From the NCBI GenBank assembly GCA_963667805.1, contig OY764016.1, positions 4,458,998 through 4,522,997 of the forward strand: a stretch of DNA of 64,000 bases. Reading direction: 5' to 3'. How positions within the stretch are numbered: the first letter of the stretch is position 1; each line of letters opens with the position of its first letter. This document shows, one piece after another, positions 31,212 to 46,758 of the stretch. Both the position numbers and the translations under genes were made by a program. A model generated the notes under the pieces. It was not told the origin of the DNA. It saw only the letters and a list, made by a program, of their open reading frames with translations, and ran no database searches. Source of the DNA: Candidatus Poribacteria bacterium (lineage in GTDB: Bacteria; Poribacteria; WGA-4E; WGA-3G).

Positions 31212-33770
31212 CTACCGAATCACTGAAATATGGAGCGGACGGGTTGCTGAGCGACCCTCCGCATCCACGCACGTTAGCACATGTTTTCCCCTGGCAGGCG
31301 TAAGCCAGTATTGCTCTCCCGCATTTCCTTGAAAAATTAACTCACCATCCAAAAACCAGAACAGTTCCTGCGTCCGACTGGAAGCCGAGGCGGTCAACCG
31401 AATCTTTTGGTTTTCCAGTGGCACCCCCTCCCGAATGTAATAGGTAGTGTCTTCTGCTGGGGATAAAATAATCGGGACGTTCCCTGCAATTGTGCCGGTA
31501 CACAAGGGATTATGCGCCGGTAGGACAGACACAGCAAAACCATTCTCTGCCAACCACGTCGCCGCATCGGCGGGCCACTCCTCAAATATTTTTTTATAGG
31601 GTCCAGTTGACCCATCATTATTTCCCCAACAATGGGAACAGAGACTGTATCCTGTCGATTCGTCAACATAGATAGGTTTATGAATCGCGCAAACCGCTAC
31701 AGACGAAACACCGGGTATATACACGTCCTCCTTATGGGTGGGACAGTGCGGCGAAACCGGTGCGCCACTCAGGGTACACACTTGTCGTGTTTTCAATTGT
31801 TCTGGTTTGGTAAACCAGTGGTGTGTGTCTTGTCCTGTCAAGGCAGTGAAGAGCGCGAATAGGATCGGAGTTGCTGCATCTGTGCCGCTCAGCATGGGTG
31901 TCCCCTTTCCATCGAAATTACCGAGCCATACACCGATTGTGAAAGTCGGGGAGTACCCGATGCACCATGCATCTCGGTGTCCATAAGACGTCCCAGTCTT
32001 CCACGCAATCTTTGGTAGGTTCATTGTCCTTTCAAACGCTTCTGGATTTTTAACCGTGTTGGTAGGGAGTTGTGAGTTTGTTAACATCTCGGTTATGATG
32101 AAGCTGGTCTCTTGTCGGAGTAAACGTTTGGAATAGTTTTCAGTTTTCGGTTGATGAGGCTTTGTCAATTGATAAGGTCCAAATTCTCCCATATTTGCCA
32201 GTCCAGCGTAAAGTGTTGTCAATTCGAGTAGATTCACTTCGCATCCGCCGAGAACCATAGAGAGTCCGTATTTCTGGGCAGGCGCGAGTGTAGAGATACC
32301 GGCTTTTTTGAGGAAGGCGTGTAGTGTCCTATTTTTCAAGCGTGCATTAAGATTAACGGCGGGGACATTGAGAGAACGTGCGAGGGCTTGACGGGCAGTG
32401 ACATAACCGTTATATTTCCCATCATAGTTCACCGGTGTATAGTCAGCATAGGTAACGGGGACATCGAATAACAGTGTTTCGGGTGTAATCAAGCCCTCTT
32501 CCATTGCCAGGGCATAGACGAAGGGTTTGAGTGCAGAACCCGGAGAACGCGGGGCGAGCGTCCCATTTATTTGTCCTAATGCCTTCCGGTCGAAAAAGTC
32601 GTGGGAACCTACCATTGCTAAGATATGGCGGTTTTGGGTATCCATGACGATGATTGCGCCTGTGCTGGTGCTATGAGACCCGCGCAAACTCGGCTTACGC
32701 GCTGCGTCCACCAGATATTCGTTAAGGATGCGTGTCGCGATATCCTGAACCTTGGCGTCTATTGTCGTGTGTATCCTGCCATTTGTTATCCGTGAGTGGG
32801 AGGGGTTTCTAACCCCGGATTTCTTCCGGTTTTCTTTAATCAATAGGCGTGAGAGGTGTGGTGCTTTAAATGGAAGTGAATAGCGTTTATGCGGAATCGG
32901 TTCTTGGACTGCCTCCTGCCACTGCTGTTCGGAAATTTGTCGGCGTGCCAGGAGACGATTCAGGACTTTTTCGCGTGCCTTTCGGGCGTTTTCTGGGAAC
33001 CTGTCAGGGCGTAAACGTTCTGGAGCGTTCGGAATGGCGGCGAGAAGTGCGGCTTCCCCAAGACTAAGCGTATGCTGGGGTTTGTTGAAGTAGAACCGCG
33101 AGGCTGCCGCTGTTCCGACTATATTCCCACCATACGGGAGCATGTTAAAATAAAACGTTAAAATCTCTGATTTGGAATAAGCGTGTTCAAGTTGAAAGGC
33201 ACGGAACATCTCAATGAATTTGTTCGGAATGTTACGCGCCTTAGGTTCCATCAATCGGGCGAGTTGCATGGTGATGGTTGAACCCCCGCGGACAACTTCA
33301 CCCGCTTTCAAATTGTCATAGATGGCTGTTGCAATCGATACAGGATTGATACCGTAATGATAGTAGAACCACCTATCTTCTGATGTGAGTATTGCTTGGT
33401 GGAGTAAGGGGGAATAGGTATCGGGTGTTCCGTTTGTCTCGTGGTGAGAATCTTGGGTTAAGGAGGGGACTGATTTATTGAAGATCTGTTGTGATTGATG
33501 ACTAAATCGCCACATGCCATCGTCGGCTAAAAATGCTCGAAGCCACTCGCCGTTTCTGTCCAACACAATCTGAGATACAGGGGGATGGAGACGTGCTTTG
33601 GGTAGCGGGAAACACCAGTTTGCGAGCATAAAGAGGATGACAATCAACAAGAAAGATAGCATTACAGTCATCAGTCCTCCGAAGAGGGGGTGTCGGTTAT
33701 AAGAGGGGCTTGTTAGACGAAGACCTCTTAACTGAAAATTGAAAACTGAAAACTGAAAACTATTCATCAT
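31212..33770 (-). CDS. pbpC: penicillin-binding protein 1C (PbpC-type bifunctional transglycosylase/transpeptidase)
   Basis: GT51 motifs are EDRWFYYHYGINP, GGSTITMQLARL and KSEILTFYFNMLPYGGNIVG. A transpeptidase domain and the PBP1C C-terminal domain follow. Its start overlaps the upstream A2M gene stop by 4 nt (ATGA). Confidence 0.8.
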   Translation of the reverse strand: MMNSFQFSVFNFQLRGLRLTSPSYNRHPLFGGLMTVMLSFLLIVILFMLANWCFPLPKARLHPPVSQIVLDRNGEWLRAFLADDGMWRFSHQSQQIFNKSVPSLTQDSHHETNGTPDTYSPLLHQAILTSEDRWFYYHYGINPVSIATAIYDNLKAGEVVRGGSTITMQLARLMEPKARNIPNKFIEMFRAFQLEHAYSKSEILTFYFNMLPYGGNIVGTAAASRFYFNKPQHTLSLGEAALLAAIPNAPERLRPDRFPENARKAREKVLNRLLARRQISEQQWQEAVQEPIPHKRYSLPFKAPHLSRLLIKENRKKSGVRNPSHSRITNGRIHTTIDAKVQDIATRILNEYLVDAARKPSLRGSHSTSTGAIIVMDTQNRHILAMVGSHDFFDRKALGQINGTLAPRSPGSALKPFVYALAMEEGLITPETLLFDVPVTYADYTPVNYDGKYNGYVTARQALARSLNVPAVNLNARLKNRTLHAFLKKAGISTLAPAQKYGLSMVLGGCEVNLLELTTLYAGLANMGEFGPYQLTKPHQPKTENYSKRLLRQETSFIITEMLTNSQLPTNTVKNPEAFERTMNLPKIAWKTGTSYGHRDAWCIGYSPTFTIGVWLGNFDGKGTPMLSGTDAATPILFALFTALTGQDTHHWFTKPEQLKTRQVCTLSGAPVSPHCPTHKEDVYIPGVSSVAVCAIHKPIYVDESTGYSLCSHCWGNNDGSTGPYKKIFEEWPADAATWLAENGFAVSVLPAHNPLCTGTIAGNVPIILSPAEDTTYYIREGVPLENQKIRLTASASSRTQELFWFLDGELIFQGNAGEQYWLTPARGKHVLTCVDAEGRSATRPLHISVIR
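32795..32828. repeat. REP family-B copy embedded in frame inside pbpC (encodes KSGVRNPSH)
   Basis: gtgggaggggtttctaaccccggatttcttcc lies within the open reading frame, in the TG-TP linker region. Confidence 0.6.
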
Positions 33771-36700
33771 TCTGGGACCACTGTAATGCGCATGCTACCC
33801 GTTACAGCGGATTTTGTTGTATCGTACATCGCCTCGGCGGCAATGGGAGGTAAGGTAAATTCGCCTTGTGTGACGGCGCGTAGCGCGTAATAGAATTTAC
33901 GTTCGCGTTGGCGGGGAAACGTGCCGAAGAAGATTAGCCTGTCATCGCGAATATCAATATAATCCGGTTTGAAATCTTGTGTTTTCAACCATGAAATACC
34001 TGCTCGGGATTCTAATCTCGGATTCTCAATTTCGAATCCCGTAGGCAGCATATCTACGACGACAACATTTTCAAGGTTGGCGGTGAGAGCTTTAACGTTT
34101 ATCTCAGCGATGATGAGTTCTCCGTGTGCGAAGGGGCCTGTCCGTTCTTCACCGTCTTTGTTAAAATAGCGTCTGCGGACCTGTAATTCGTGCTCGTATT
34201 CTTCGATGAAGGAATCGCGTTGGATGCCAAACGCGCTCCAATAATAGTAGCAACTGCCCTCACCTTTAACAGAAAGTTGGACACGCATCCCATCCCATAT
34301 TTTATCGGTATAACGGGTCTCCGTTGCGTCGAAGTCGGCGAAATGTTCGCCATTAAGCGTTAGGGTACCCGTGTAATTTCTATCCATCTGTTTCTTCAGA
34401 ATCTTGCCGAGTGCCAGAAACGCAAAGGCGTTTTCTTGTGTTGTTGCCCATCGGTTCCCTTCAGCTGCTGCAGCACTTAGGTTTTGGACGAGCATTGGGA
34501 TTGACGGGTGGTTTTTGTTAACTTCAGCAAGAACGTCTAACATGATGGCTTGGGCTCGAATAGGGGAATCAAGCGTTCCGCCTGTCTCGCGATGTCCGTT
34601 GCCTTTATTAAAATTGGGTGATACTGACACGGGTAGCATTGACAGGGCGGTTTCCAGTTCGCCGCTGAGAGCGAACGCACCTGCGAGTTGGAAATGGCTA
34701 TAATCGCTGAGTCCGCTCAAACCTCTGTTTTTCAGATAGTGCATCGTGCCTCGGTCGGGATGTCCAGCAGCAGCTAAGACGTAAGCGGCATAGGTTGCTA
34801 ATGAAATCTTCTTTCTTATCTCTTGGGCTTCGTTTTCTGTGTTTGGCGAGAATTTCGCTTCCGTTCTTAGACCTTCCAGCATTGCGTCATAAACCCGGTC
34901 TGAGACCTCGTAGCCTGCCTTTCGTGCCTCGACGAGGAAGTGAGACGCATAGATACTGCTCCATGGGTTCACGTAAGTGCCGCCGGGCCAATAAGCGAAA
35001 CGATCGTCTGACTTCAACATACTTTCGATTTTTGTGATACCCGATGTGATGTAGTGATCCACCGAGTCTTCTGCTGCCAGCATCGGTTCAACACTTCGTG
35101 CCAAACCGCTGAAGTAAAGCAGCGGAAAAACCTTGCTCGTTGTTTGTTCGAGACAGCCGTGCGGGTAACGTATAAGGTAACGGAGACTGTCCGCAAACCT
35201 AATATTGGGGAACGGAGATAACGTGAGGCTAAACTCTGACGAATCGGGTATTAAATTTGACGGGAAAATAAAATCAGCAGGTTCACCTGCGCGGACCACG
35301 CCCTGTCCGGTTTGTGTAACAGGTGGAGCCACGGAACGCAGTGGGATTTTAACGTCTAATTGTGTTGTTTGTGTCTTACCGTGCGCCGAAAGATTGAAGT
35401 TGGCTTCCCCGATTGCGTCCTGAACGAGAAGATCGAAAAAAACTTGTGCTTCTGCGCCTGCGTCGACCTTCTGGTTTATACTGAGTTTGTCTGCTGTATA
35501 TTGGCTATCGGAAACCATCGGAGACTGTTGGTTTTCAGCAGAGCGGTGCTCTTGTTGATCACTGGCTATTGATGGATCGTTATTGGCAGCCATTGCTGAA
35601 AGGAGTTGCACGTCGCCTGATGCTTGCAATTCGACCGTAAATTCCTCTTCCGCGCCCGTGCCGTTAAAGAGGGTAACCGGGACCCGAACCTTATCACCAC
35701 CCGCAAGGAATCGTGGAAATGTCGGGGTTAAGACAATAGGTTCGCGGACAGTCAGATGTGCTTCTGTGCCACCGTAATCGCCACCCGCGAATGCGACTGC
35801 CATCAACCTGAGTGTCCCATTGAACTGCGGGATTTTGAATTGAACAGTACCGCGACCATTTCCATCGGTTTTCACGAATCCTGACCAGAGTGAAATCGGT
35901 TTTACGCGCCGGATGCTGCCTGTGCTCAATCGCTTCCGCAGTTCCGCCTGTCGTGTCGTGGCTGCATCTCCCCCCGTACTTGAGTTGTCGATAACATTTG
36001 CGATTTCGGGGAGGATCCCACTATACACGTCGAAGGAGCGCGTCTTAAGCCCACGCTGTCTATAGAAGTAAGCGTGTGGGTTGGGTGTTTTGAAATCGGT
36101 TAACACGAGGATCCCTTCATCAACGGCTGCAATACAGACATCATATTTTTGCCAAGAACGTCTACCGTGAACTTGGAACGCTATAGTCACCTCGCTATTC
36201 GGTAGGACTGTCGCTGCGCTTTCTATATTCTTTTCTGGACTGGCGAGTGGAATCTTCTCCATATCACCAGCATCGTTTCTCTGATTGAGCGACATTTCTA
36301 TCGAAAGTTGTCTCCGTGTTTCATCTATTTTGAGTGGAATTACCCCAAACGCGCGCGCCGGGAGCGGCGACTTCTTAGCAGTTGTAGGAGGGGTTTGTAA
36401 CCCCGATTCCATCGGGATGGCGCGCGTCAACGTCGCAGAGAGATACACATTCGGTCTATAGGCATAACGGATTGGGATTGATAAAGTTGTGGTGTTATTT
36501 TTCATCACGACTGTCCGGTAACTCAACACCTTTTCCCGTTCGATCGTCAGCAGGAGTGTGCCCGGAAACGGTGCCTTAACATATAGTTTTGCTGTTTGTC
36601 CGGGACGGTAAGCAGGCTTATTAAGCGTCAGTTCCAGTCGAGTGGGATGTTCCATAGAAACTGGAATGTTTCCCCATCCGCTGACATAAAATCCGAGTTC

Positions 36701-39466
36701 TGCTGTCGCTGTCGAGGCGATGTCCTCAAGACGGACGCGGTATTCACCATAATCTGAGGGCGTTAAGGTCACTGTCTGGACTGTTTCTGCTGAAGTTAGT
36801 GTGACCGTTTCCACTTCTGTTGTTTGAGGTTCCGAGACGTACGCATAGCGCCCGGCACCGTTCTGACGGAGTATCGTGTTCCAGTGGACTTTGTGGAGAC
36901 TGAGTTTGAGGTCTCTTCCGGGGGCAACTGCCATTGTATCGTTAACAGCAATGTAATCGAATCGGAGCGGTTGGTTGATTTTTACATCCCCGGTCTTTGT
37001 GCGTCGGAGTCCAACGTAATGCGAATAGGGATGGATCACAACGCTGTGAGAAGCGGTGACGGCTCTGCCGCCGACTTCGCTAACGGTCGCTGTCAGCGTG
37101 CCGTTTAGCAGAGAAGGTGCTTTCAGCGTTTCAGGGATCGTGAATTGATAGGACGCTTTACCCGCTGCATCGGTTTTAACTTCTCCCAATCCAATTCTTT
37201 GTTTTTCAAAATTGGAACGCGCATTCCCGAAGACAAACGAGTTCCACTGTGTTGCACTTGCGTTGGCTGCTGAATTTACAAACGAGACTGCTTCCAATTC
37301 GCAGGAAGCTTCCACCGTGCGCCCTACTGCTGGGGGACCGAATAGATTGATAGCGGACACTTCAATACCGAGTTCCTCTCCAAGTTTATAAGTGGATTTA
37401 TCCGCTGTTACAGCGACTTTTATCCGATCAGGCATAAATTCTTCGACCTGAAATTGGACTCTTCCAACGACCCGATCAGCGATCCGCATCTTGGCAATAT
37501 AATTACCAGTCAAGGCGTAGGTAGGGATAGGAATTTCTACATCGCAGGCACCGCTTTTGTTTGTTTGTAGTCTTAACTCCCGCATAATTCTGCCGTTTGG
37601 GGAGAGCACTTCAATCTTGGCAGGGAGCGGTTGTGGTGTTACCTGCTTTGGTCCTCGAACAATTCCAGCAAGTTGGACGGTTTCACCCGGACGATAGACC
37701 CCTCTGCTTGTGTAGAGGAACGCTTCATAACCTTTTTGCAGGTAGGCAGAACCGGCAATGTTGAAATCTGCTGTTGCGATTTCGTGTCGGTCGAGTTGAA
37801 CGAAAGCGAGATCGTCCCGTTTCGCGGCGGTGATCATAAACGGTGTGAAGTCTTCAGTCTTCTCCACAACGTCTGTGAACTGGATGTATCCTGCCCAGTT
37901 GGTTGTCCCATCGAGGAGTGTTTGGTTATTATCGCTGATGAGTTTAACGCGCGCCGCTGGGACTGCCGAACCCGTCGCGAGTGATTTCACCCAAACGTAT
38001 AGGTTATCTCCTAAGCGTTTGGCAGTGATACCCAAGTCTGTGATGAGCACCCATTGATGCGCACTATCCCACTCCCGCTCTGCGTTTCGCGCCACGACCT
38101 TAAAGATGCCGACATGTTCGTCTGAGAGATATTCTTCCAAGGAGATAGGTGTTGTTACCTCTTCGTTCAATTGGGACGGAATATCGAGTTCTTCTGTCCG
38201 AATCGGTTTACCTAAGTTTCTGCTCCAGCGACTCCATCGTTCTAATTTTGATATGTAGATAAGGTTGTTCGCGAAAACTTTTTCGATATTGAGTTTCACG
38301 CTTTTAACATTGATTGTTGCGAGACCTAAATTCAGATGCCCCTTTCTCGCGAGGAAGAAACCGTCGCCAAGGAATCGAAGTTGGGGTCGGATATCTGGGA
38401 TTCTGAGGCGCGTCCTGTAATCTTGTTTTAAAACGGCATCGTTTCGGGCTGTGAGACCGCGTCGGATCTTTAGCGTGTAGGTCGTGCGCCGTTTGAAGTT
38501 GCCGTGAATCTGCACGTTTCGATAGTCGGATGTCACTTGATGTGCTACTGCGGGGGTCAGTTCTATATACGGCTTGATGGCATCGCTGAGTACCGGCGCG
38601 CTGAAGCTCACCGAGATATACGGCGTTCCATCACTTTCCCAAACGTCAGCGTATGTCACACCGAGTGTGCCTCTCCCGCGGAGTATGACCGGTGTAACAC
38701 TCGCTTTTTCTAAACCAATTTTCCCACCCGTACATTTGAACCCTTTTTCAATCTTAATCTTTATCTCTTGATCTGCGTTGCCGCGTTTTATACGCTGCGT
38801 CTCGAATGTTACTGTCCGCGCTGTTGCTGTGTTGGTTTGAATCTGGTATGGAATTTCTGTTTCGTCGTCCAGTTCAATAGAGAGGTGTGCCTTTAAATCG
38901 ACAATGGTTACAGGATAATTAAATGCTATCGTCCCAAAACCTGTTGCGTGTTCGCGGGCATCATTGGCGGTAAATTCCATACGTGCCTGCTGCACTGCAA
39001 AAGGATCCGTAGCAAATTTAAACTCTTTTTGTCCAGTGAGTAGAAATGTCTCAGATGGGTTGAGTTCTGGGGTGAGTTGAACAGTATATTGTGCGGAGGG
39101 TGCTAAGGGTGCGTCTAAAAAGAAACCGACTCTGTCCCGCGCGATCCAACGGGCAGCGCCTTGGACAGCTGGTGTGAACCGAAGTGCCTCTGCTGGAACT
39201 TCGGTCCCGACACGCGACTTATCAATAACCGCTTCCGAGAACGTAATCGACAAATCAACCCATTGTGGAACCTCACCTTGTGGGCTGAAGGTCTTGACAC
39301 TGTATCGTGTCCGAGCACGCATGGGCCCCTGTACAATATAGACGATACAGGCAGCAAGGAGTAAGGACATGAGTCCGATCACACCGATTAAGCTTTTTAA
39401 GAGCAAATTTCGACTTCCGGGTTTCGCCGAAAGATTTGTGGAGAGTTTGGCTGCCATCAGACGCAC
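33767..39466 (-). CDS. bacterial alpha-2-macroglobulin family protein with intact thioester motif (YfhM-like)
   Basis: 1899 aa, N-terminal membrane anchor, MG-domain repeats. The thioester CLEQ lies in YLIRYPHGCLEQTTSKVF. It is cotranscribed with pbpC as in the classic yfhM-pbpC pair. Confidence 0.85.
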   Translation of the reverse strand: MRLMAAKLSTNLSAKPGSRNLLLKSLIGVIGLMSLLLAACIVYIVQGPMRARTRYSVKTFSPQGEVPQWVDLSITFSEAVIDKSRVGTEVPAEALRFTPAVQGAARWIARDRVGFFLDAPLAPSAQYTVQLTPELNPSETFLLTGQKEFKFATDPFAVQQARMEFTANDAREHATGFGTIAFNYPVTIVDLKAHLSIELDDETEIPYQIQTNTATARTVTFETQRIKRGNADQEIKIKIEKGFKCTGGKIGLEKASVTPVILRGRGTLGVTYADVWESDGTPYISVSFSAPVLSDAIKPYIELTPAVAHQVTSDYRNVQIHGNFKRRTTYTLKIRRGLTARNDAVLKQDYRTRLRIPDIRPQLRFLGDGFFLARKGHLNLGLATINVKSVKLNIEKVFANNLIYISKLERWSRWSRNLGKPIRTEELDIPSQLNEEVTTPISLEEYLSDEHVGIFKVVARNAEREWDSAHQWVLITDLGITAKRLGDNLYVWVKSLATGSAVPAARVKLISDNNQTLLDGTTNWAGYIQFTDVVEKTEDFTPFMITAAKRDDLAFVQLDRHEIATADFNIAGSAYLQKGYEAFLYTSRGVYRPGETVQLAGIVRGPKQVTPQPLPAKIEVLSPNGRIMRELRLQTNKSGACDVEIPIPTYALTGNYIAKMRIADRVVGRVQFQVEEFMPDRIKVAVTADKSTYKLGEELGIEVSAINLFGPPAVGRTVEASCELEAVSFVNSAANASATQWNSFVFGNARSNFEKQRIGLGEVKTDAAGKASYQFTIPETLKAPSLLNGTLTATVSEVGGRAVTASHSVVIHPYSHYVGLRRTKTGDVKINQPLRFDYIAVNDTMAVAPGRDLKLSLHKVHWNTILRQNGAGRYAYVSEPQTTEVETVTLTSAETVQTVTLTPSDYGEYRVRLEDIASTATAELGFYVSGWGNIPVSMEHPTRLELTLNKPAYRPGQTAKLYVKAPFPGTLLLTIEREKVLSYRTVVMKNNTTTLSIPIRYAYRPNVYLSATLTRAIPMESGLQTPPTTAKKSPLPARAFGVIPLKIDETRRQLSIEMSLNQRNDAGDMEKIPLASPEKNIESAATVLPNSEVTIAFQVHGRRSWQKYDVCIAAVDEGILVLTDFKTPNPHAYFYRQRGLKTRSFDVYSGILPEIANVIDNSSTGGDAATTRQAELRKRLSTGSIRRVKPISLWSGFVKTDGNGRGTVQFKIPQFNGTLRLMAVAFAGGDYGGTEAHLTVREPIVLTPTFPRFLAGGDKVRVPVTLFNGTGAEEEFTVELQASGDVQLLSAMAANNDPSIASDQQEHRSAENQQSPMVSDSQYTADKLSINQKVDAGAEAQVFFDLLVQDAIGEANFNLSAHGKTQTTQLDVKIPLRSVAPPVTQTGQGVVRAGEPADFIFPSNLIPDSSEFSLTLSPFPNIRFADSLRYLIRYPHGCLEQTTSKVFPLLYFSGLARSVEPMLAAEDSVDHYITSGITKIESMLKSDDRFAYWPGGTYVNPWSSIYASHFLVEARKAGYEVSDRVYDAMLEGLRTEAKFSPNTENEAQEIRKKISLATYAAYVLAAAGHPDRGTMHYLKNRGLSGLSDYSHFQLAGAFALSGELETALSMLPVSVSPNFNKGNGHRETGGTLDSPIRAQAIMLDVLAEVNKNHPSIPMLVQNLSAAAAEGNRWATTQENAFAFLALGKILKKQMDRNYTGTLTLNGEHFADFDATETRYTDKIWDGMRVQLSVKGEGSCYYYWSAFGIQRDSFIEEYEHELQVRRRYFNKDGEERTGPFAHGELIIAEINVKALTANLENVVVVDMLPTGFEIENPRLESRAGISWLKTQDFKPDYIDIRDDRLIFFGTFPRQRERKFYYALRAVTQGEFTLPPIAAEAMYDTTKSAVTGSMRITVVPE
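36384..36411. repeat. REP family-B copy embedded in frame inside the A2M gene (encodes ESGLQTPPT)
   Basis: gtaggaggggtttgtaaccccgattcc. The protein reads ...IPMESGLQTPPTTAKK.... Confidence 0.55.
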
Positions 39467-39650: not shown

Positions 39651-39763
39651 TCTTTAAGTGACGTTATGTGTAAATATAAACACATTAGGGACGGATGTGG
39701 AGATCCGTCCCTATGTAAAGCAGTTTAAATGGAATCGGCACCTGGGTGCCGATGCAAAAGTCT

Positions 39764-40999
39764 TTAGAACCAGAATCGTGACATCAAAATAATCTGGTCT
39801 GTCCCCTGAAGTTGGCGGAGTGTGCCTTTGTCTTTAATAGCGTCATCGGCATTGCGGTCAGCATTGGCGAGGTTCGCCCAGTAAAAGAGAGAAATTGCCC
39901 CGTTTTCGATAAAATTGTACTGGGCACTGAGTGTAACCCGTTGGCTTGCATCTCCCTTAACCGTTCGATCTGGGTCAAACAAACCGTATCGACCCGCGAC
40001 GGTGAATTGGGGAAGAATGCGATATTTTGCCCCAACGTAATACCCCTTTGAATCAACAGCATCCGGTGTGAAAGCGGCGACCTCTCCGCTATTTCCAAAA
40101 TTGAATTCACCCTCAATACTCACCCCTGCGTAGGAAGCGGTGAGAAATGCACCGATGAGTCGTTCCCAGTCTTCGGTTGATTTTTCAAGGATTGCGGACG
40201 CCCCTGCTCGAATCGGTCCGAGTTGTGCACCAAAGGTCCCGAGTCCACCTTTCGCTGCGCTGGTGTTGGCATTAAAAAAAGCTGCGTTATAGAAAATCTT
40301 CCCCGCACTTCCACCGATTTCAACCCCGACATCCCGTTTATTAGAACCGAGTCCATACCCTTCCCGAACAAGAATGTTATGATCTTTCTGTTTGATAGCG
40401 AAGGGCAGTCGAAATTGTCCGACTTTGACATAGAGATGCTTTGGAATCGCGTCTACCGTTGCAAACGCATTCATCGTTGTCCCAGCGTTGTTGGAAAGGG
40501 TAAGCCGGACGTGTTCAGAGGCTTCTGCGTTGAACGTTACTTCCGCTTGCATGAGCAGAAATCTGTCGACGGAAGAGTGGCATGAATTACATCCAGCGAT
40601 CGCATTCTCGGCTTCGTCGACATGTGTTGTTTTGATAAAAGCCGTCTGGAAATCCAGGGAGGTTGTGAGTCGCTTAACGACCTCCTTGACTTCTTCCGTC
40701 ACGGCTTCCGCGTCGAAATCTTCGGGGAATTCGAAATAGTTCTCTTCAAAAATTTCGCCGACCCGATTTCGGGGTCCACCGCCAGCCGGGTCAAGATGAC
40801 AGAAGCTGCACTCTTTATCAAGTTCGGTTGCAAACTCAGGTCGTGCCTCTACAGTGGTCGGGAAAAAAAGACTGAGCGAGACACTCGCTATAAACGCGAG
40901 CCATAAAAACAGTGATATACCTCTGGATATATCCGACGATTTTGGGAGTAGAGTGATATTACTCAGGTATCTCGTCCAGTCGTTAGCGTATGAATTCAA
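39764..40999 (-). CDS. putative outer-membrane cytochrome c-porin fusion (Cyc2-like), two CXXCH motifs plus beta-barrel
   Basis: Signal peptide ...GISLFLWLAFIASVSLSLFFPTTVEA. CSFCH sits 12 residues into the mature protein and a second GCNSCH lies about 70 residues later. The C-terminal 270 aa show alternating-hydrophobic beta strands and end in ...LMSRFWF (terminal Phe, an OMP signature). TTG start. Confidence 0.45.
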   Translation of the reverse strand: MNSYANDWTRYLSNITLLPKSSDISRGISLFLWLAFIASVSLSLFFPTTVEARPEFATELDKECSFCHLDPAGGGPRNRVGEIFEENYFEFPEDFDAEAVTEEVKEVVKRLTTSLDFQTAFIKTTHVDEAENAIAGCNSCHSSVDRFLLMQAEVTFNAEASEHVRLTLSNNAGTTMNAFATVDAIPKHLYVKVGQFRLPFAIKQKDHNILVREGYGLGSNKRDVGVEIGGSAGKIFYNAAFFNANTSAAKGGLGTFGAQLGPIRAGASAILEKSTEDWERLIGAFLTASYAGVSIEGEFNFGNSGEVAAFTPDAVDSKGYYVGAKYRILPQFTVAGRYGLFDPDRTVKGDASQRVTLSAQYNFIENGAISLFYWANLANADRNADDAIKDKGTLRQLQGTDQIILMSRFWF

Positions 41000-41016
41000 A
41001 AGATGCTCCTTATCTT

Positions 41017-41577
41017 TTAATCAAGTTCCGTAAAAACGTAATCAATATCTTCGACTCGGGCATGACATCCCCAGCAGATCCGGTCTTGTGCTATGACGCT
41101 GAATTCAGCATCTGGCGCGTTTCGGACATATTCAATAAACTGCCAATCGTTGTGATCGGGGTCGGTGCCTGCTTTTTTCCGCATAATCGCGATAAGCCCG
41201 ATATAATCCTTACCCGGACGAATCGCATCTTTTACGACGATACTTCCATCCGGATATGGGAACTGCTGGGTCCCGTTCGGTGCGATGGTGTCCCGTGTTT
41301 GATTGACGTAAACGTTTTTTGTCCCGTTGTGTGGGTCGCCACCGGGCGCAGGTGGGATAGGTTCTGCGTTTAATTTGAGCCATTGTGTGTAACCTGCCAC
41401 ATCATCGGGTAAGCCGGGGAGTGCGACTACCGGTTCTGTAGGTTGAACGGGTTCTTCTATGGTCATGGTTTCTTCTTCAGATTTTTCAATGATTTCTTCC
41501 AATTGTTCGCTGGCACAGGCAGTGAAAAGCAGCGCTATTGCCAGGATAGCCAGCAAGTTTCGTGTGTACGTTTTCAT
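41017..41577 (-). CDS. cytochrome P460-like haem lipoprotein
   Basis: Lipobox LLFTAC. Single CWGCH near the C-terminus followed by DIDYVF. Size of about 170 aa mature. The AIMRKK...DWQFIEYV context resembles the P460/cytochrome c'-beta fold family. It lies 17 bp upstream of the cytochrome-porin gene on the same strand. Confidence 0.5.
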   Translation of the reverse strand: MKTYTRNLLAILAIALLFTACASEQLEEIIEKSEEETMTIEEPVQPTEPVVALPGLPDDVAGYTQWLKLNAEPIPPAPGGDPHNGTKNVYVNQTRDTIAPNGTQQFPYPDGSIVVKDAIRPGKDYIGLIAIMRKKAGTDPDHNDWQFIEYVRNAPDAEFSVIAQDRICWGCHARVEDIDYVFTELD

Positions 41578-41723
41578 GATAAATACCTCATTTTATAAAG
41601 AATAGATGCGTTTTTATTTTTCTGGTGAGATTTCTTGGGAAACATCCCAGCAAAACACTTCATCCTTTTCCAATCTAATTTTACAAAATAATATTTTACT
41701 GGTTCAATATGTAATGTAAAGGA

Positions 41724-41748
41724 AAATTGTATCTTAATGATACAATTT
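41724..41748. promoter_or_regulatory. perfect 10-5-10 palindrome AAATTGTATC-TTAAT-GATACAATTT, operator candidate about 150 bp upstream of the P460 gene
   Basis: Seen directly in the sequence, in an AT-rich 470-bp divergent intergenic region between the P460 operon and ftsY. Confidence 0.3.
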
Positions 41749-42047
41749 AGTATACAACAAAATAGTGAAGGTTTCAAGGGAATCTACATGCCTCTATTAT
41801 CACAGATCCCTTATATTGAAGCAGATGTTGTGAAGAAACTAAATTTGTGAGATTTTTTGAAGTCTTTGGGGTTGCGAATCGTTTCCAAGAGGTGTGATTC
41901 TAATGTATACCATTTATTTCCGTCATTATGGTTATCTATACCATTTTCGTTTGCCTTTTTGCTTGTTATTGTTGTATTATATGACAGGAATAGGCAAGGT
42001 TTCTGCTGAAAGTTAAAGACAGAAAATAAGGAAAAAAAGGAAAGATA

Positions 42048-43131: not shown

Positions 43132-43743
43132 TCAATCTGTTTCTCGTAGATAGGGGCGGAGATGTTTGCGAAGGTTACGATGCGCGTGGAGCAGATGGGC
43201 TTTGACTGTTCCATCGGATCGTCCAACGGTCGCTGCAATATCTTTAAGTGATAACCCGTCCCAGTGCCGTAAAATGAAGATTTGCCGCTGTTTTGGCGGA
43301 AGCCGACGGACGGCTTTCCGGATATGAGCCCTCAACTCCTTATTTTCCATTGCTTTTGCGGGTGATTCTGAGCGGGGATCCGGGATATTGGACATCGGCA
43401 GTTCCTCGGAATCCTCGGAGTCGTATAGGAGGACTTCCGATCTTGCTTTTTTCCGTAGGAAATCGATACAGAGATTCACCGTGATTCGGTAAAGCCAACT
43501 GTAAAACTGACACTGACTCTTGAAGTCGCCTAATCCTTGATATGCGCGTATGAAAGCGTCTTGTGTCAGGTCCGATGCGTCTTCTGGGTTTGGGACGAAG
43601 CGTTGCACCAAACGATAGGTGCGTTTTTGGTAGCGGGTAAAGAGCATGTCAAATGCGGCGGTGTCGCCTTGTTGAAATCGCTCAATTAGTTCAACATCCT
43701 CGTTACATTCTGGAGGGATGCTTTCTGGGCTTTGGGACTGCAT
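43132..43743 (-). CDS. ECF-type RNA polymerase sigma-70 family factor
   Basis: Region 2 is DLTQDAFIRAYQGL and SWLYRITVNLCIDFLRKK. Region 4 is LSLKDIAATVGRSDGTVKAHLLHAHRNLRKHL. Confidence 0.8.
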   Translation of the reverse strand: MQSQSPESIPPECNEDVELIERFQQGDTAAFDMLFTRYQKRTYRLVQRFVPNPEDASDLTQDAFIRAYQGLGDFKSQCQFYSWLYRITVNLCIDFLRKKARSEVLLYDSEDSEELPMSNIPDPRSESPAKAMENKELRAHIRKAVRRLPPKQRQIFILRHWDGLSLKDIAATVGRSDGTVKAHLLHAHRNLRKHLRPYLRETD

Positions 43744-43881
43744 GTTCTCCTCTTAAGCGTCATTGACCGGGAAAGGGGTTTCTGACTTTGTTAGGTGCTG
43801 GCAGCGAAGTTTGCTATACGAACATCGCTAAACCCCATTATTGGAAGTCAGAAACGCAAGTGGTCATTGACAAAATCGAAG

Positions 43882-44760
43882 TCACTGATTCGTTTGTTTG
43901 TGGATACTGCGAAACCAACGTTTATATCTCTGGCTATCTTGAACCATCTGTTGTAGGACAATTAATTCTTCGTCTTCTTCGACATGTGGATTTGTCTCGA
44001 GCAACGATAACAATTCCTCATAGACCAGGGCATCTTCGTGGGTGAGTGATGAGAGCAGTCTCTCAAAATTCTCACCATGCCCGAGCATTGCCAACAGTTG
44101 GTTCGTATGACGTATCTCCTCAGAAGCAGCTTGGTTCAGGTACGCTGCAAGTTCATGTTCGTTGCGTTTTTCGGCGATCTGTGCGAGAATCAATCGCATC
44201 CCGACAAGTTTGAGTTTTGCTTGTGCCAGTTCGTCCAAATCCGCTTCAAACCGTTTTTGGAGATGGTCTGCATCCCGTGGATGTAACTGGGCATAACTTG
44301 GCCACACTGGCTTTGCCATCACCTGTTTCAACCGTTGTAGGCTGTCAATCAGGGTTTCCTGCTCTTGTGGGGATAATTGTCCGAAAGTGCTTTCCCAGAA
44401 GTTTGTCTCGTGGACGACGCGTTCTCGGAAAAGTTTTTCAGACTGCGGGGTGAGTTGAATCCGTGCACGTCTCCGATCCTTATCACATTTACGACGGACG
44501 ACCCAACCGTGCCGTTCAAGACGACTCGCTAAGGCGGATGTTGTATTATGGGCAAGACCCAAATGCTCACCGAGTTCACTCACTGACATACCCGCCTCAC
44601 GCCCATACCAATGAAGATGTTGGAGAGCGTTGAATTGGACAATCGTCAGGCGATTGGGGACGACTTCCTGAATAAACCTGGATTTGACAGCCGCTTGCGC
44701 ATGACGCATCACACGCATCACGACATCAATTTCATTATGGAATTCCTGGTCTTTAGACAT
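43882..44760 (-). CDS. MarR-family winged-helix regulator with extended C-terminal domain of unknown function
   Basis: LTIVQFNALQHLHWYG...MSVSELGEHLGLAHNTTSALASRLERHGWVVR is a MarR wHTH. It lies adjacent to an ECF sigma gene and is not a classic anti-sigma factor. Confidence 0.5.
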   Translation of the reverse strand: MSKDQEFHNEIDVVMRVMRHAQAAVKSRFIQEVVPNRLTIVQFNALQHLHWYGREAGMSVSELGEHLGLAHNTTSALASRLERHGWVVRRKCDKDRRRARIQLTPQSEKLFRERVVHETNFWESTFGQLSPQEQETLIDSLQRLKQVMAKPVWPSYAQLHPRDADHLQKRFEADLDELAQAKLKLVGMRLILAQIAEKRNEHELAAYLNQAASEEIRHTNQLLAMLGHGENFERLLSSLTHEDALVYEELLSLLETNPHVEEDEELIVLQQMVQDSQRYKRWFRSIHKQTNQ

Positions 44761-45024
44761 ATTTTGGCGATACTTTTAAGCCAAACTTACTGTTGAGTGA
44801 AAGTCGGCGGTGTAGAGGGGTGCTTTCAAACTCCTGTTAAATCACAAAAAGTTATTATATCCTATATTGGATACATTTTCCGTCGTATGCGATAGAATAA
44901 TTATACACCGACTTTATCCAGATGTCAAATTAAACTGCAAAAAAATGGTAATTTTCGAGGATTTTTCGTCCAAACTCGGTGTTTGACTAAGAATTATCTG
45001 CATTTTTTCCGAAATTGGCGGTTT

Positions 45025-46758
45025 TTAATTGCTGCCAACGAGGCGTTGTGCCTTCATTTTTCGCTTTCTCTTCGATTTTGACTTAGGTTTCGATGCGTTC
45101 GTTTGACTGTGCTGCGCTTCTTGGTTATTTGTGGTCGGTTGATTCACCTGAAGGACTTGTTGCTGCTGTGCCACATACTCGGCGTAGTTGCCTTTAAAAA
45201 GTTCCGCAGTCCCTCCGGGTTTACCGTCAAAAATTAACAGTTTTGTGGCGAGATTGTTCAGCAGGTACCGATCGTGAGAAATAATAAAGAGCGTTGCTGG
45301 ATATTCCGCCAGTGCTGCTTCCAATGCCTCGCGTGCCGGGATGTCGAGATGGTTCGTTGGTTCATCAAGGAGGAGGACATTCGCATTCGCTAATAGTAAC
45401 TTCGCGAGTAGCACGCGGCTCTGTTCTCCGCCGCTTAGATTTCCAATCCTTTTGAACACGTCATCACTGGAAAATAGAAACTTACCCAAGAAGTTACGTA
45501 TTTCGCCTTGTGTATGTTTCGGTCGAAGTGCCCAGATTTCGTCAATAATTTCGTTGTCTGGGTTGAGTCCCTCCAATTCCTGCCCATAGTACCCAAGCTT
45601 AAGTGTGGGACCTATCCACATTTCTCCCTCGGTTGGTACTTCATCGCCTAAGATCATTCGGAAGAACGTTGTTTTTCCTGTGCCGTTCGCCCCAATAATT
45701 CCGATAACATCGCGGCGGTATACCTCAAAATTCAAGTCCGTAAAAATGAGCTTATCGCCGAATGATTTGCCAACCTTTTGGCATCGGAGGATGTCGTTTC
45801 CACCGCGGGTTTCGGGCGTGAAACTGAGACTGAGGGTCGGCGCATCAGATTTCGGTTTTTCGACTCTTTCCAAGCGGTTCAGTTTTTTCTGTCTACCTTG
45901 TGCCTCTCGTGTGCGTTGCCCCGCCATGTTACGGCGGATAAAGTCCTCTTCGTGTTCAATGAACGCCTGCTGTTTTTTGAATGCTCGTTCTGCGACTAAT
46001 TGTTCAACCCTTTTCGTTTCGACGTACTTGGAGTAGTTTCCACGATAAATTTTTATCTGGTGTTCTTCGAGTTCCCAAACCTTGCGGACGACCTTATCTA
46101 AGAAGTACCGATCGTGAGAAACAACGAGGACTGCGCCGTTGTATTCAACGTTGAGATAGTTTTCGAGCCACTCAATTGCGTTGATGTCGAGGTGATTTGT
46201 GGGCTCATCAAAAAGCAGGAGATCTGGCTTTTCAAGGAGCAGCTTTGCGAGTGTCGCTCGGCTTTTCTGTCCACCACTGAGGACACGAATCGGGAGATTG
46301 AAGTCGAGTTCACTAAAACCCAAGCCACCGAGGATACGATTGATCTCGTATTCATAATCGTAACCCCCGAGTTGTTCGTGCTGTTCTTGAATCCGAGCGT
46401 ATGCTGCTAAAAGGTCGGGTGCCTCTTCTGTTTCCATCTCCTCTGCGAGCAAGAGCATCTTGTCTTCAAGTGTCCGCCGTTTTTCAAAAACCTTGAGCAT
46501 CTCTTGCCTGAGGGTGCAATCATGTGCGAGATCCGGTTCTTGACTGAGGTAACCGATACGTAAGCCCTTCGCTGAGACAACTTTCCCTTTAAAATTAGCA
46601 AGCAGACCGTTTATAATCTTAAGTAACGTTGTTTTTCCTGTTCCGTTACGGCCAATTAATCCGATTCGGTCTCCATGCTCAATTGAAACCGAAATATCGT
46701 CGAGAATCAGGTCTGGATCGTACAATTTGGTGATGTGTTCTAATCGTATTAAGGACAT
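45025..46758 (-). CDS. ABC-F family ATPase (tandem ABC domains, no TMD; translation-factor type)
   Basis: Two Walker A sites (GRNGTGKTTLL, GANGTGKTTFF). Two LSGG signatures (LSGGQKSRATLA, LSGGEQSRVLLA). Confidence 0.8.
   Translation of the reverse strand: MSLIRLEHITKLYDPDLILDDISVSIEHGDRIGLIGRNGTGKTTLLKIINGLLANFKGKVVSAKGLRIGYLSQEPDLAHDCTLRQEMLKVFEKRRTLEDKMLLLAEEMETEEAPDLLAAYARIQEQHEQLGGYDYEYEINRILGGLGFSELDFNLPIRVLSGGQKSRATLAKLLLEKPDLLLFDEPTNHLDINAIEWLENYLNVEYNGAVLVVSHDRYFLDKVVRKVWELEEHQIKIYRGNYSKYVETKRVEQLVAERAFKKQQAFIEHEEDFIRRNMAGQRTREAQGRQKKLNRLERVEKPKSDAPTLSLSFTPETRGGNDILRCQKVGKSFGDKLIFTDLNFEVYRRDVIGIIGANGTGKTTFFRMILGDEVPTEGEMWIGPTLKLGYYGQELEGLNPDNEIIDEIWALRPKHTQGEIRNFLGKFLFSSDDVFKRIGNLSGGEQSRVLLAKLLLANANVLLLDEPTNHLDIPAREALEAALAEYPATLFIISHDRYLLNNLATKLLIFDGKPGGTAELFKGNYAEYVAQQQQVLQVNQPTTNNQEAQHSQTNASKPKSKSKRKRKMKAQRLVGSN

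Follow-up and report, generated by a model that had tools for sequence, protein, structure and literature searches.

The main marker gene for inferring microbial iron oxidation is Cyc2, by definition a one-haem protein. How its single haem passes electrons across a membrane 3 to 4 nm thick is an unresolved question in the field. Current models of the one-haem protein have Fe(II) passing down a negatively charged tunnel to the haem. By published definition, Cyc2 consists of a signal peptide, one CXXCH motif, and a 16-strand porin resembling OprO and OprP, with the signature AxPxFAR[Q/K][T/Y] before the CXXCH and PxL shortly after it, and sequences without PxFAR[Q/K][T/Y] were dropped from the published Cyc2 data set (PMC8406198). 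Cytochromes P460 and c'-beta share a family in which a lysine cross-linked to the haem (Lys70, Lys78, and Lys106 in the three solved P460s) separates P460 from c'-beta, and no physiological role has been determined for any cytochrome c' (PMC11928373). We analysed a window of 64,000 nucleotides from a sponge-associated Candidatus Poribacteria bacterium (GenBank assembly GCA_963667805.1, contig OY764016.1, positions 4,458,998 to 4,522,997), in which two adjacent genes, here called g1 and g2, encode a P460-type lipoprotein and a fused cytochrome c-porin with two CXXCH motifs. By computation, g2 stands for a conserved branch with two haem sites among proteins of Cyc2-type cytochrome-porin architecture, joined in sponge Poribacteria to an unusual P460 lipoprotein, and we believe both features to be new. 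We hold the protein identities and the two-haem Cyc2-type architecture with high confidence. In the open-access papers searched, we found neither a Cyc2-like protein with two haems nor a P460 whose gene adjoins that of a cytochrome-porin.

A preliminary description of the window, made from its letters and open reading frames (ORFs), had placed g2 17 bp downstream of g1, and both ORFs lie exactly at the stated positions, on the minus strand, with the g2 start 17 nt past the g1 stop codon (Table 1). The gap between them holds an AGGAG ribosome-binding site. Of all stop-to-stop ORFs in the window that reach 120 aa, only g1 and g2 have a CXXCH motif. The nearest homologues of both proteins come from Poribacteria assemblies, with identities of up to 97% for g2 and up to 93% for g1, and because all three CXXCH motifs are invariant among the relatives, they are not chance occurrences. 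Recent horizontal transfer of the pair was considered and rejected because g1 and g2 have the same GC content (0.48 to 0.50) as the DNA on either side.

Searches with g2 and with its family profiles against Pfam, NCBIfam, and PDB sequences returned no curated family and weak porin matches only. These were to Porin_4 (Pfam) for some g2 relatives and to the siderophore porin LbtU (NCBIfam) for some one-haem relatives, and g2 itself had no match in Pfam, NCBIfam, or PDB at the sequence level, solved porins included. A short N-terminal match to the multihaem cytochrome 6qvm was regarded as signal peptide plus CXXCH alone. We built a family profile from 19 Poribacteria homologues and searched it against 1.8 billion representative proteins, which found 458 family representatives, the full-length members being cytochrome-porin fusions of 360 to 430 aa with an N-terminal CXXCH. 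Nearly all full-length relatives have a single CXXCH at about residue 30 to 45 and an aromatic last residue, and their motif is set between A-x-P-[RYE]-[FY]-A-x-[RQ]-x-G-x-x and [VI][ND]P[ST]GGG. When the Poribacteria two-haem family was aligned by hhalign with 26 one-haem proteins, the two matched end to end, with the signal peptide at one end and the final Phe at the other (353 columns, probability of 100%, E value of 1.5e-45). Pairwise identity between g2 and the one-haem relatives is 18 to 25%, which lies in the 17 to 30% range reported between recognised Cyc2 clusters (PMC8406198 Fig. S7). The alignment used for conservation comprised 175 sequences (g2, 58 two-haem relatives, and 116 one-haem relatives).

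The preliminary description had called g2 Cyc2-like, and this holds for the architecture, the position of the first haem site, and the in-register A-x-P-x-F-A upstream of it. With Cyc2 of Acidithiobacillus ferrooxidans and Mariprofundus PV-1 and with Leptospirillum Cyt572, g2 shares a signal peptide, a small N-terminal c-type module, a predicted 16-strand OprO/OprP-like C-terminal porin, and a length of about 400 aa (at least 365 aa is expected of Cyc2). Cleavage at VEA/RPEF would put CSFCH at mature residues 12 to 16, in agreement with the earlier placement at about residue 12, and the haem-1 histidine at mature residue 16, where the published A. ferrooxidans Cyc2 model has it (H16). AlphaFold2 predicts a helix at g2 residues 24 to 45. 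The likeness fails at the strict signature and at PxL. The g2 sequence reads ARPEFATEL-DKE-CSFCH, in which A, P, F, and A are in register and R, [Q/K], and [T/Y] are not, and the motif continues as CH-LDPAGGG, with a Pro at +3 and no PxL, so that unlike Cyc2 it would be rejected by the published screening filter. Within the family, P54 and A57 are conserved throughout, haem motif 1 of g2 is followed by LDPAGGGPRN, and the flanking motif CH[ILV]DPAGGG.RN is invariant across the 58 two-haem relatives. None of the retrieved cytochrome-porin relatives matches the strict filter PxFAR[Q/K][T/Y], and cluster look-ups for a true Cyc2 sequence returned only entries named "hypothetical protein" from uncultured bacteria, while tblastn against plasmids gave no match. 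We do not file g2 as a strict Cyc2 because the strict signature and PxL are missing from it; as far as sequence can tell, it is a protein of Cyc2-type architecture within a broader, uncurated cytochrome-porin superfamily, the comparison being with Cyc2 as published descriptions give it.

Three further proteins (P0488 to P0490) have the small N-terminal cytochrome module fused to CopD-like membrane proteins and lack the porin. P0488 adds a cytochrome b5 domain and, with ATPEYARQT...CIYCH, is the only sequence we saw that matches the strict Cyc2 motif.

Unlike Cyc2, g2 has a second CXXCH. The preliminary description had noticed it about 70 residues past the first; CNSCH lies at +73 and is invariant in the 19 close homologues and in the 58 two-haem relatives, whose identities to g2 run from 29 to 97%. 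At g2 residues 133 to 137, the alignment shows gaps in over 90% of the one-haem relatives (116 sequences), and the second haem site therefore arose as an insertion. An AlphaFold2 run with the 19 close homologues gave a pLDDT of 32 and was set aside, and we used the model obtained with a 69-sequence alignment. In that model, the C-terminal region forms a 16-strand beta-barrel that ends in ...ILMSRFWF, in line with the barrel and terminal Phe first proposed for it, and the insertion sits between strand 1 (residues 111 to 124) and strand 2 (residues 146 to 159). The connections T1 to T7, which would be the periplasmic turns, are 2 to 4 residues long; on the other side, loop L1 has 21 residues, L3 has 26 with a short helix, and L4, L6, L7, and L8 have 8, 11, 9, and 24. 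Because outer-membrane barrels usually have short turns on the periplasmic side and long loops on the other, L1 would lie outside and haem 2 with it, a placement that we favour by a modest degree on the strength of the model. Conservation makes Met150 a candidate axial haem ligand and His207, in L3, a candidate axial ligand or metal site. L3 is the channel-constricting loop of classical porins.

Another two-haem layout was seen in three relatives (P0267, P0295, and P0354). Their second CXXCH is only about 26 residues past the first and is therefore in the N-terminal module, not in loop L1.

The g1 protein matched the Pfam profile PF16694 (Cytochrome_P460) at 48.3 bits, above the cut-off of 27, over positions 2 to 125 of 125, and its relatives are entered at NCBI as "cytochrome P460 family protein [Candidatus Poribacteria]". 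Its matches to the c'-beta structures 7ead (Thermus thermophilus) and 6hih (Methylococcus capsulatus) had E values of 1e-6 to 2e-5, and the solved P460s matched at E values of 0.2 to 0.8 only, so that in overall sequence the c'-beta proteins are closer. These results uphold the original assignment of g1 to the P460/c'-beta family, and the lipoprotein features reported with it are also present: a single CWGCH, 18 residues before the C terminus, and a DIDYVF tail (...EDIDYVFTELD). Like the P460s of N. europaea, M. capsulatus, and Nitrosomonas sp. AL212, g1 has the full Pfam domain, a CXXCH near the C terminus, and a lysine (Lys116) at the cross-link position, and because of this lysine it is P460-type, not c'-beta, by the family's own definition. 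The position is conserved, and the bond itself is putative. The alignments of g1 to the structures are unambiguous near Lys116, Ala130, and His83.

Two pocket positions of g1 depart from what is known. Every solved member caps the haem iron with Phe or Arg (PMC11928373, a 2025 review, Table 2 and text), and g1 has His83 at this position, which could either serve as a base or bind the iron as its sixth ligand. The catalytic carboxylate is Glu96 in the N. europaea protein and Asp102 in the M. capsulatus protein and is replaced by Ala131 in the inactive Nitrosomonas sp. AL212 protein (PMC11928373); g1 resembles the latter, with Ala130 at this position, and thus lacks the carboxylate of the NH2OH oxidases. 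The alanine is invariant in the 121 family sequences. A further difference from the solved P460 and c'-beta proteins is that g1 is a lipoprotein, in which the lipobox LFTA/C21 is followed by a 40-residue acidic, Pro-rich tether, and that its gene adjoins one for a cytochrome-porin. Characterised members of the P460/c'-beta family are known as soluble periplasmic proteins. The review makes no mention of lipoproteins (PMC11928373). Judged by these residues, g1 is a P460-type lipoprotein with a pocket of a so far uncharacterised kind.

We scanned one genome per GTDB species and found relatives of g2 in 231 places; our counts of loci refer to the best 80 of these, all of which are in Poribacteria. 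In 73 of the 80 species genomes, the porin gene is immediately preceded on the same strand by a P460 gene, with identities of 61 to 95% to g1 and 68 to 96% to g2. The estimated spacer between the two genes is at most 150 nt in 56 loci and exceeds 1.3 kb in three. Seven loci gave no P460 match, two of which end at contig ends, leaving five that are informative. The synteny on which the preliminary description had staked its proposal is thus real in Poribacteria and does not extend to more distant two-haem relatives, and the P460 gene drops out of the conserved order at the edge of one Poribacteria clade. Of the three outcomes named there as refuting (no predicted barrel, no P460/c'-beta fold, no synteny in relatives), none went against the proposal.

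Among the distant two-haem relatives, P0251 (30% identity to g2) has a Rieske gene 62 nt on, followed by a cytochrome b-c fusion (L004/L005, 6001-9163), which looks like an operon joining an outer-membrane cytochrome to a bc-type complex. Upstream of P0456 (L091, 1-3164) are a gene for a flavodiiron protein (ODP plus flavodoxin domains) and, 75 nt from the porin gene, one for a 203-aa protein with four transmembrane helices and a C-terminal CSKCH. The latter was considered as a divergent P460, and this reading was rejected. The remaining distant two-haem relatives have unrelated neighbours. From these gene contents, links to respiratory or NO/O2-reducing haem proteins recur with a partner that varies.

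The spacing of the pair differs between Poribacteria clades. In a clade with about 74% g2 identity (L003, L057 to L065, and others), 200 to 600 nt without an ORF separate the P460 and porin genes, compared with 17 to 80 nt elsewhere, which suggests that the porin gene there has its own promoter. One of the three loci with a spacer above 1.3 kb (L071, 3541-4665) has an IS605 TnpB-like ORF of 374 aa between the two genes, and another (L060, 3588-4928) has a 1.4-kb insert with no clear gene.

We propose that g1 and g2 form one transcription unit for a small outer-membrane redox module, a reading that, taken as a whole, we rate a little better than even. After Sec export and haem attachment, the part of g2 that carries haem 1, a small helical cytochrome module, would occupy the periplasmic mouth of a 16-strand OprP-like barrel or lie within it, and haem 2 would sit on the L1 insertion at the outer mouth, possibly folded into the channel by Met150 and His207 of L3. 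The two haems could then serve as a relay that moves electrons across the outer membrane, and with such a relay a dissolved substrate need not descend the pore, unlike what has been proposed for one-haem Cyc2. We take g2 to be probably an outer-membrane electron conduit. The lipid anchor and the flexible tether of g1 would hold the P460 to the outer membrane on its periplasmic side, where it may be the periplasmic redox partner of g2; we put this functional coupling at slightly under an even chance. Electrons would run from the P460 site through g2 to an external acceptor, and the P460 site would oxidise or bind a small nitrogen compound, for example NH2OH or NO. We favour outward flow over an Fe(II)-driven inward flow because the potentials of cross-linked P460 haems are very low (-340 mV for McP460 and about -380 to -430 mV for AL212 variants, with -205 mV for McCP-beta) (PMC11928373), so that electrons should pass more readily from a P460 haem to ordinary c-type haems than back. 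Any particular substrate or direction of flow is tentative at best when taken singly. The gene structure, the family memberships, the barrel fold, the conservation of the three haem sites, and the synteny within Poribacteria are results of the analysis; haem occupancy, the site of haem 2, the coupling of the two proteins, both physical and functional, the direction of flow, and the substrate are inferred.

Several points weigh against this module. Five Poribacteria loci have no P460 gene in the 2.6 to 5 kb upstream of the porin gene, and they hold the most divergent g2 homologues (67 to 72% identity); none of the seven more distant two-haem relatives examined has a P460 neighbour. The pair is split by the IS element in one genome with both genes intact, and both are also intact in the locus with the 1.4-kb insert. 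Adjacency is weak evidence of coupling because the entire neighbourhood is syntenic, the order in Poribacteria being ABC-F, MarR, ECF sigma, ftsY, the g1-g2 pair, alpha-2-macroglobulin, and PBP1C. In the g2 model, L1 has low confidence (pLDDT of about 50 to 65) and may be surface-exposed or folded into the channel, and periplasmic attachment of a haem to a loop that ends outside the barrel would be unusual. Oxidation of NH2OH is uncertain because g1 lacks the distal carboxylate needed in characterised P460s.

The alternative that survives best, which we consider possible and on balance unlikely, separates the two proteins. On that account, g2 alone would be a Cyc2-type Fe(II) or metal oxidase, or an electron-uptake protein, that feeds soluble periplasmic carriers, and g1 would be an unrelated periplasmic haem protein that binds or detoxifies NO or NH2OH and has no more in common with g2 than a promoter or a conserved neighbourhood. 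The distant two-haem relatives without a P460, one of them tied to Rieske and cytochrome b genes, favour this account, as do the tolerated IS insertion and the synteny of the whole neighbourhood. The same account sits less well with the 17-nt spacing and its ribosome-binding site, with a same-strand adjacency kept in 73 of 80 species, and with a long linker that tethers g1 to the membrane when its characterised relatives are soluble. Given the low potentials of P460 haems, g1 would be ill suited to accept electrons derived from Fe(II), which again speaks for separate functions, as do the NO-defence roles proposed for the P460/c' family (PMC11928373). The upstream gene of another clade also encodes a membrane-anchored protein with a single CXXCH, and this suggests that an anchored haem partner is general, as the redox module would have it.

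A second alternative keeps the coupling of g1 to g2 and reverses the flow, as in classical Cyc2. Extracellular Fe(II) or another reductant would give up its electrons to the surface haem of g2; the first periplasmic acceptor, in the role of rusticyanin or Cyc1, would be g1, an ordinary electron carrier made six-coordinate by His83. The architecture that g2 has in common with the Fe(II) oxidase Cyc2 fits this, and so does His83, which is invariant and stands exactly above the position of the haem iron; the conserved Lys116, in turn, speaks for a catalytic haem with a cross-link and against a mere carrier. In one relative, the porin gene is followed by Rieske and cytochrome b genes, as expected of an electron-uptake chain, and yet potentials of -205 to about -430 mV for P460 and c'-beta proteins are far below those of Fe(II)-oxidising cytochromes. 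The host phylum consists of heterotrophic sponge symbionts with no known iron oxidiser, unlike the hosts of Cyc2, and to our knowledge Fe(II)-oxidising physiology has not been reported in sponge Poribacteria. FeGenie "cyc2" matches have been listed without comment for a vent Poribacteria genome and would favour the inward direction, although they may or may not be g2-type proteins (PMC12482716). We regard inward flow as quite improbable. It is hardly credible that g2 is a plain solute porin with CXXCH motifs that are vestigial or not haem sites, since, for all the resemblance of its barrel to phosphate and general porins and the weak Porin_4 and LbtU matches of some relatives, the first CXXCH is invariant in 175 of 175 aligned members, both CXXCH and the flanking motif are invariant in the 58 two-haem relatives down to 29% identity, and the CXXCH motifs of this unit are the only ones in the 64 kb.

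The redox module proposed here can be compared with the outer-membrane systems it most resembles. MtrAB(C), MtoAB, and PioAB share its principle, a chain of c-type haems in or along an outer-membrane barrel with a partner at one end. In these systems, a separate decahaem protein is threaded through a 26-strand barrel, whereas g2 would have two covalent haems and 16 strands. No multihaem gene of the MtrAB kind lies nearby, as g1 and g2 account for all CXXCH ORFs of the window. The phosphate-selective porins OprP and OprO have 14% sequence identity with g2 and are not known to carry a cytochrome module or a CXXCH haem site. Where Cyc2 genes have cyc1, rusticyanin, or cytochrome oxidase genes as neighbours, g2 has the P460 lipoprotein gene.

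The finding matters to work on iron oxidation, on extracellular electron transfer, and on P460 chemistry. A two-haem relative with its extra haem on a loop predicted to face outward would be a natural experiment on electron transfer by Cyc2, and motif-based Cyc2 screens miss a sizeable family, given relatives in 231 places. We know of no in vivo electron partner for any P460, and a membrane-tethered, His-capped P460 encoded 17 nt from an outer-membrane cytochrome gene offers a concrete partner that can be tested. The locus also points to extracellular redox chemistry, so far unrecognised, in sponge symbionts of a dominant group. The boldest version is that g2 and its relatives form an undescribed class of self-contained two-haem conduits, with one haem on a surface loop and the other at the periplasmic mouth of the 16-strand barrel, and that in sponge Poribacteria g2 is the long-sought P460 partner, coupling periplasmic oxidation of a nitrogen compound (NH2OH or NO, which are abundant beside sponge ammonia oxidisers) to an extracellular acceptor; this we consider speculative and rather improbable.

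Table 1. Features of the g1-g2 locus, with positions in the 64,000-nt window
Feature	Position	Strand	Evidence or remark
g1, cytochrome P460/c'-beta family lipoprotein, 186 aa	41017..41577	-	PF16694 match, PDB matches
g1 Cys21, lipobox cysteine ([LF][TSA]A/C)	41515..41517	-	Sequence; Cys in 120/121 family members
g1 His83, distal "capping" position	41329..41331	-	Aligns with Phe32 of McCP-beta and Phe29 of TtCP-beta; invariant in 121/121
g1 Lys116, haem-lysine cross-link position	41230..41232	-	Aligns with Phe61 of McCP-beta and TtCP-beta; invariant in 121/121
g1 haem motif CWGCH, residues 168-172	41062..41076	-	Invariant in family
g1-g2 spacer, 17 nt	41000..41016	-	AGGAG 6 nt 5' of the g2 TTG start; read from sequence
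g2, fused two-haem cytochrome c-porin, 411 aa	39764..40999	-	Family profile, alignments, AlphaFold2
g2 signal peptide, residues 1-52	40844..40999	-	Read from sequence; probable cleavage at VEA/RPEF
ARPEFATEL, partial in-register match to Cyc2 signature	40820..40846	-	R53-A57 invariant in close Poribacteria relatives
g2 haem 1 motif CSFCH, C64-H68, mature residues 12-16	40796..40810	-	Invariant in 175/175 aligned members
g2 haem 2 motif CNSCH, C137-H141	40577..40591	-	Strand 1-strand 2 insertion, predicted extracellular loop L1; AlphaFold2 map
g2 16-strand beta-barrel, residues 111-411, C-terminal signal ...MSRFWF	39767..40669	-	AlphaFold2 (predicted)
g2 Met150, start of strand 2, candidate axial ligand	40550..40552	-	Kept in all two-haem relatives (100%) and in 75% of those with one haem
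g2 Asp206-His207, loop L3	40379..40384	-	His207 kept in all two-haem relatives (100%) and in 76% of those with one haem
Promoter-like TTGAAA, 17-nt spacer, TATACT	41749..41777	-	Consensus scan, 10/12 positions; predicted
Perfect palindrome AAATTGTATC-N5-GATACAATTT, candidate operator	41724..41748	.	Directly 3' of the -10 element
Terminator-like hairpin, 11-bp stem, weak T tract	39686..39713	-	About 50 nt past the g2 stop codon

The predicted promoter-like site is sigma-70-like and lies about 170 nt upstream of g1. It falls within a 390-nt stretch 5' of g1 (41578-41965) that is AT-rich (GC of 0.36, compared with about 0.48 in the flanks) and contains several overlapping promoter-like sites. Rfam gave no match in or around the g1-g2 unit, this stretch included.

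A palindromic operator candidate had been noted in the same region, and the palindrome itself is real, with 10-nt arms and a 5-nt spacer. Its conservation as an operator did not hold up: it is absent from 70 of 76 related loci, and the six that keep the sequence with 1 to 4 mismatches are all close relatives, among which a dyad of even 7 nt is kept in one only and the changes are non-compensated. We therefore treat it as a weak operator candidate. The product of the syntenic MarR-family gene would be the obvious candidate to bind it.

That gene belongs to the group upstream of the pair (43132-46758, minus strand), which is syntenic and encodes an ECF sigma factor, the MarR-family protein of 292 aa, which has a long extension at its C terminus, and an ABC-F ATPase. 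Directly downstream of g2, on the same strand, a gene for a bacterial alpha-2-macroglobulin of 1899 aa (33767-39466) is followed with a 4-nt overlap by one for a PBP1C-type protein with Transgly, Transpeptidase, and BiPBP_C domains (31212-33770), and we take the two genes (31212-39466) to be the well-known A2M-Pbp1C pair.

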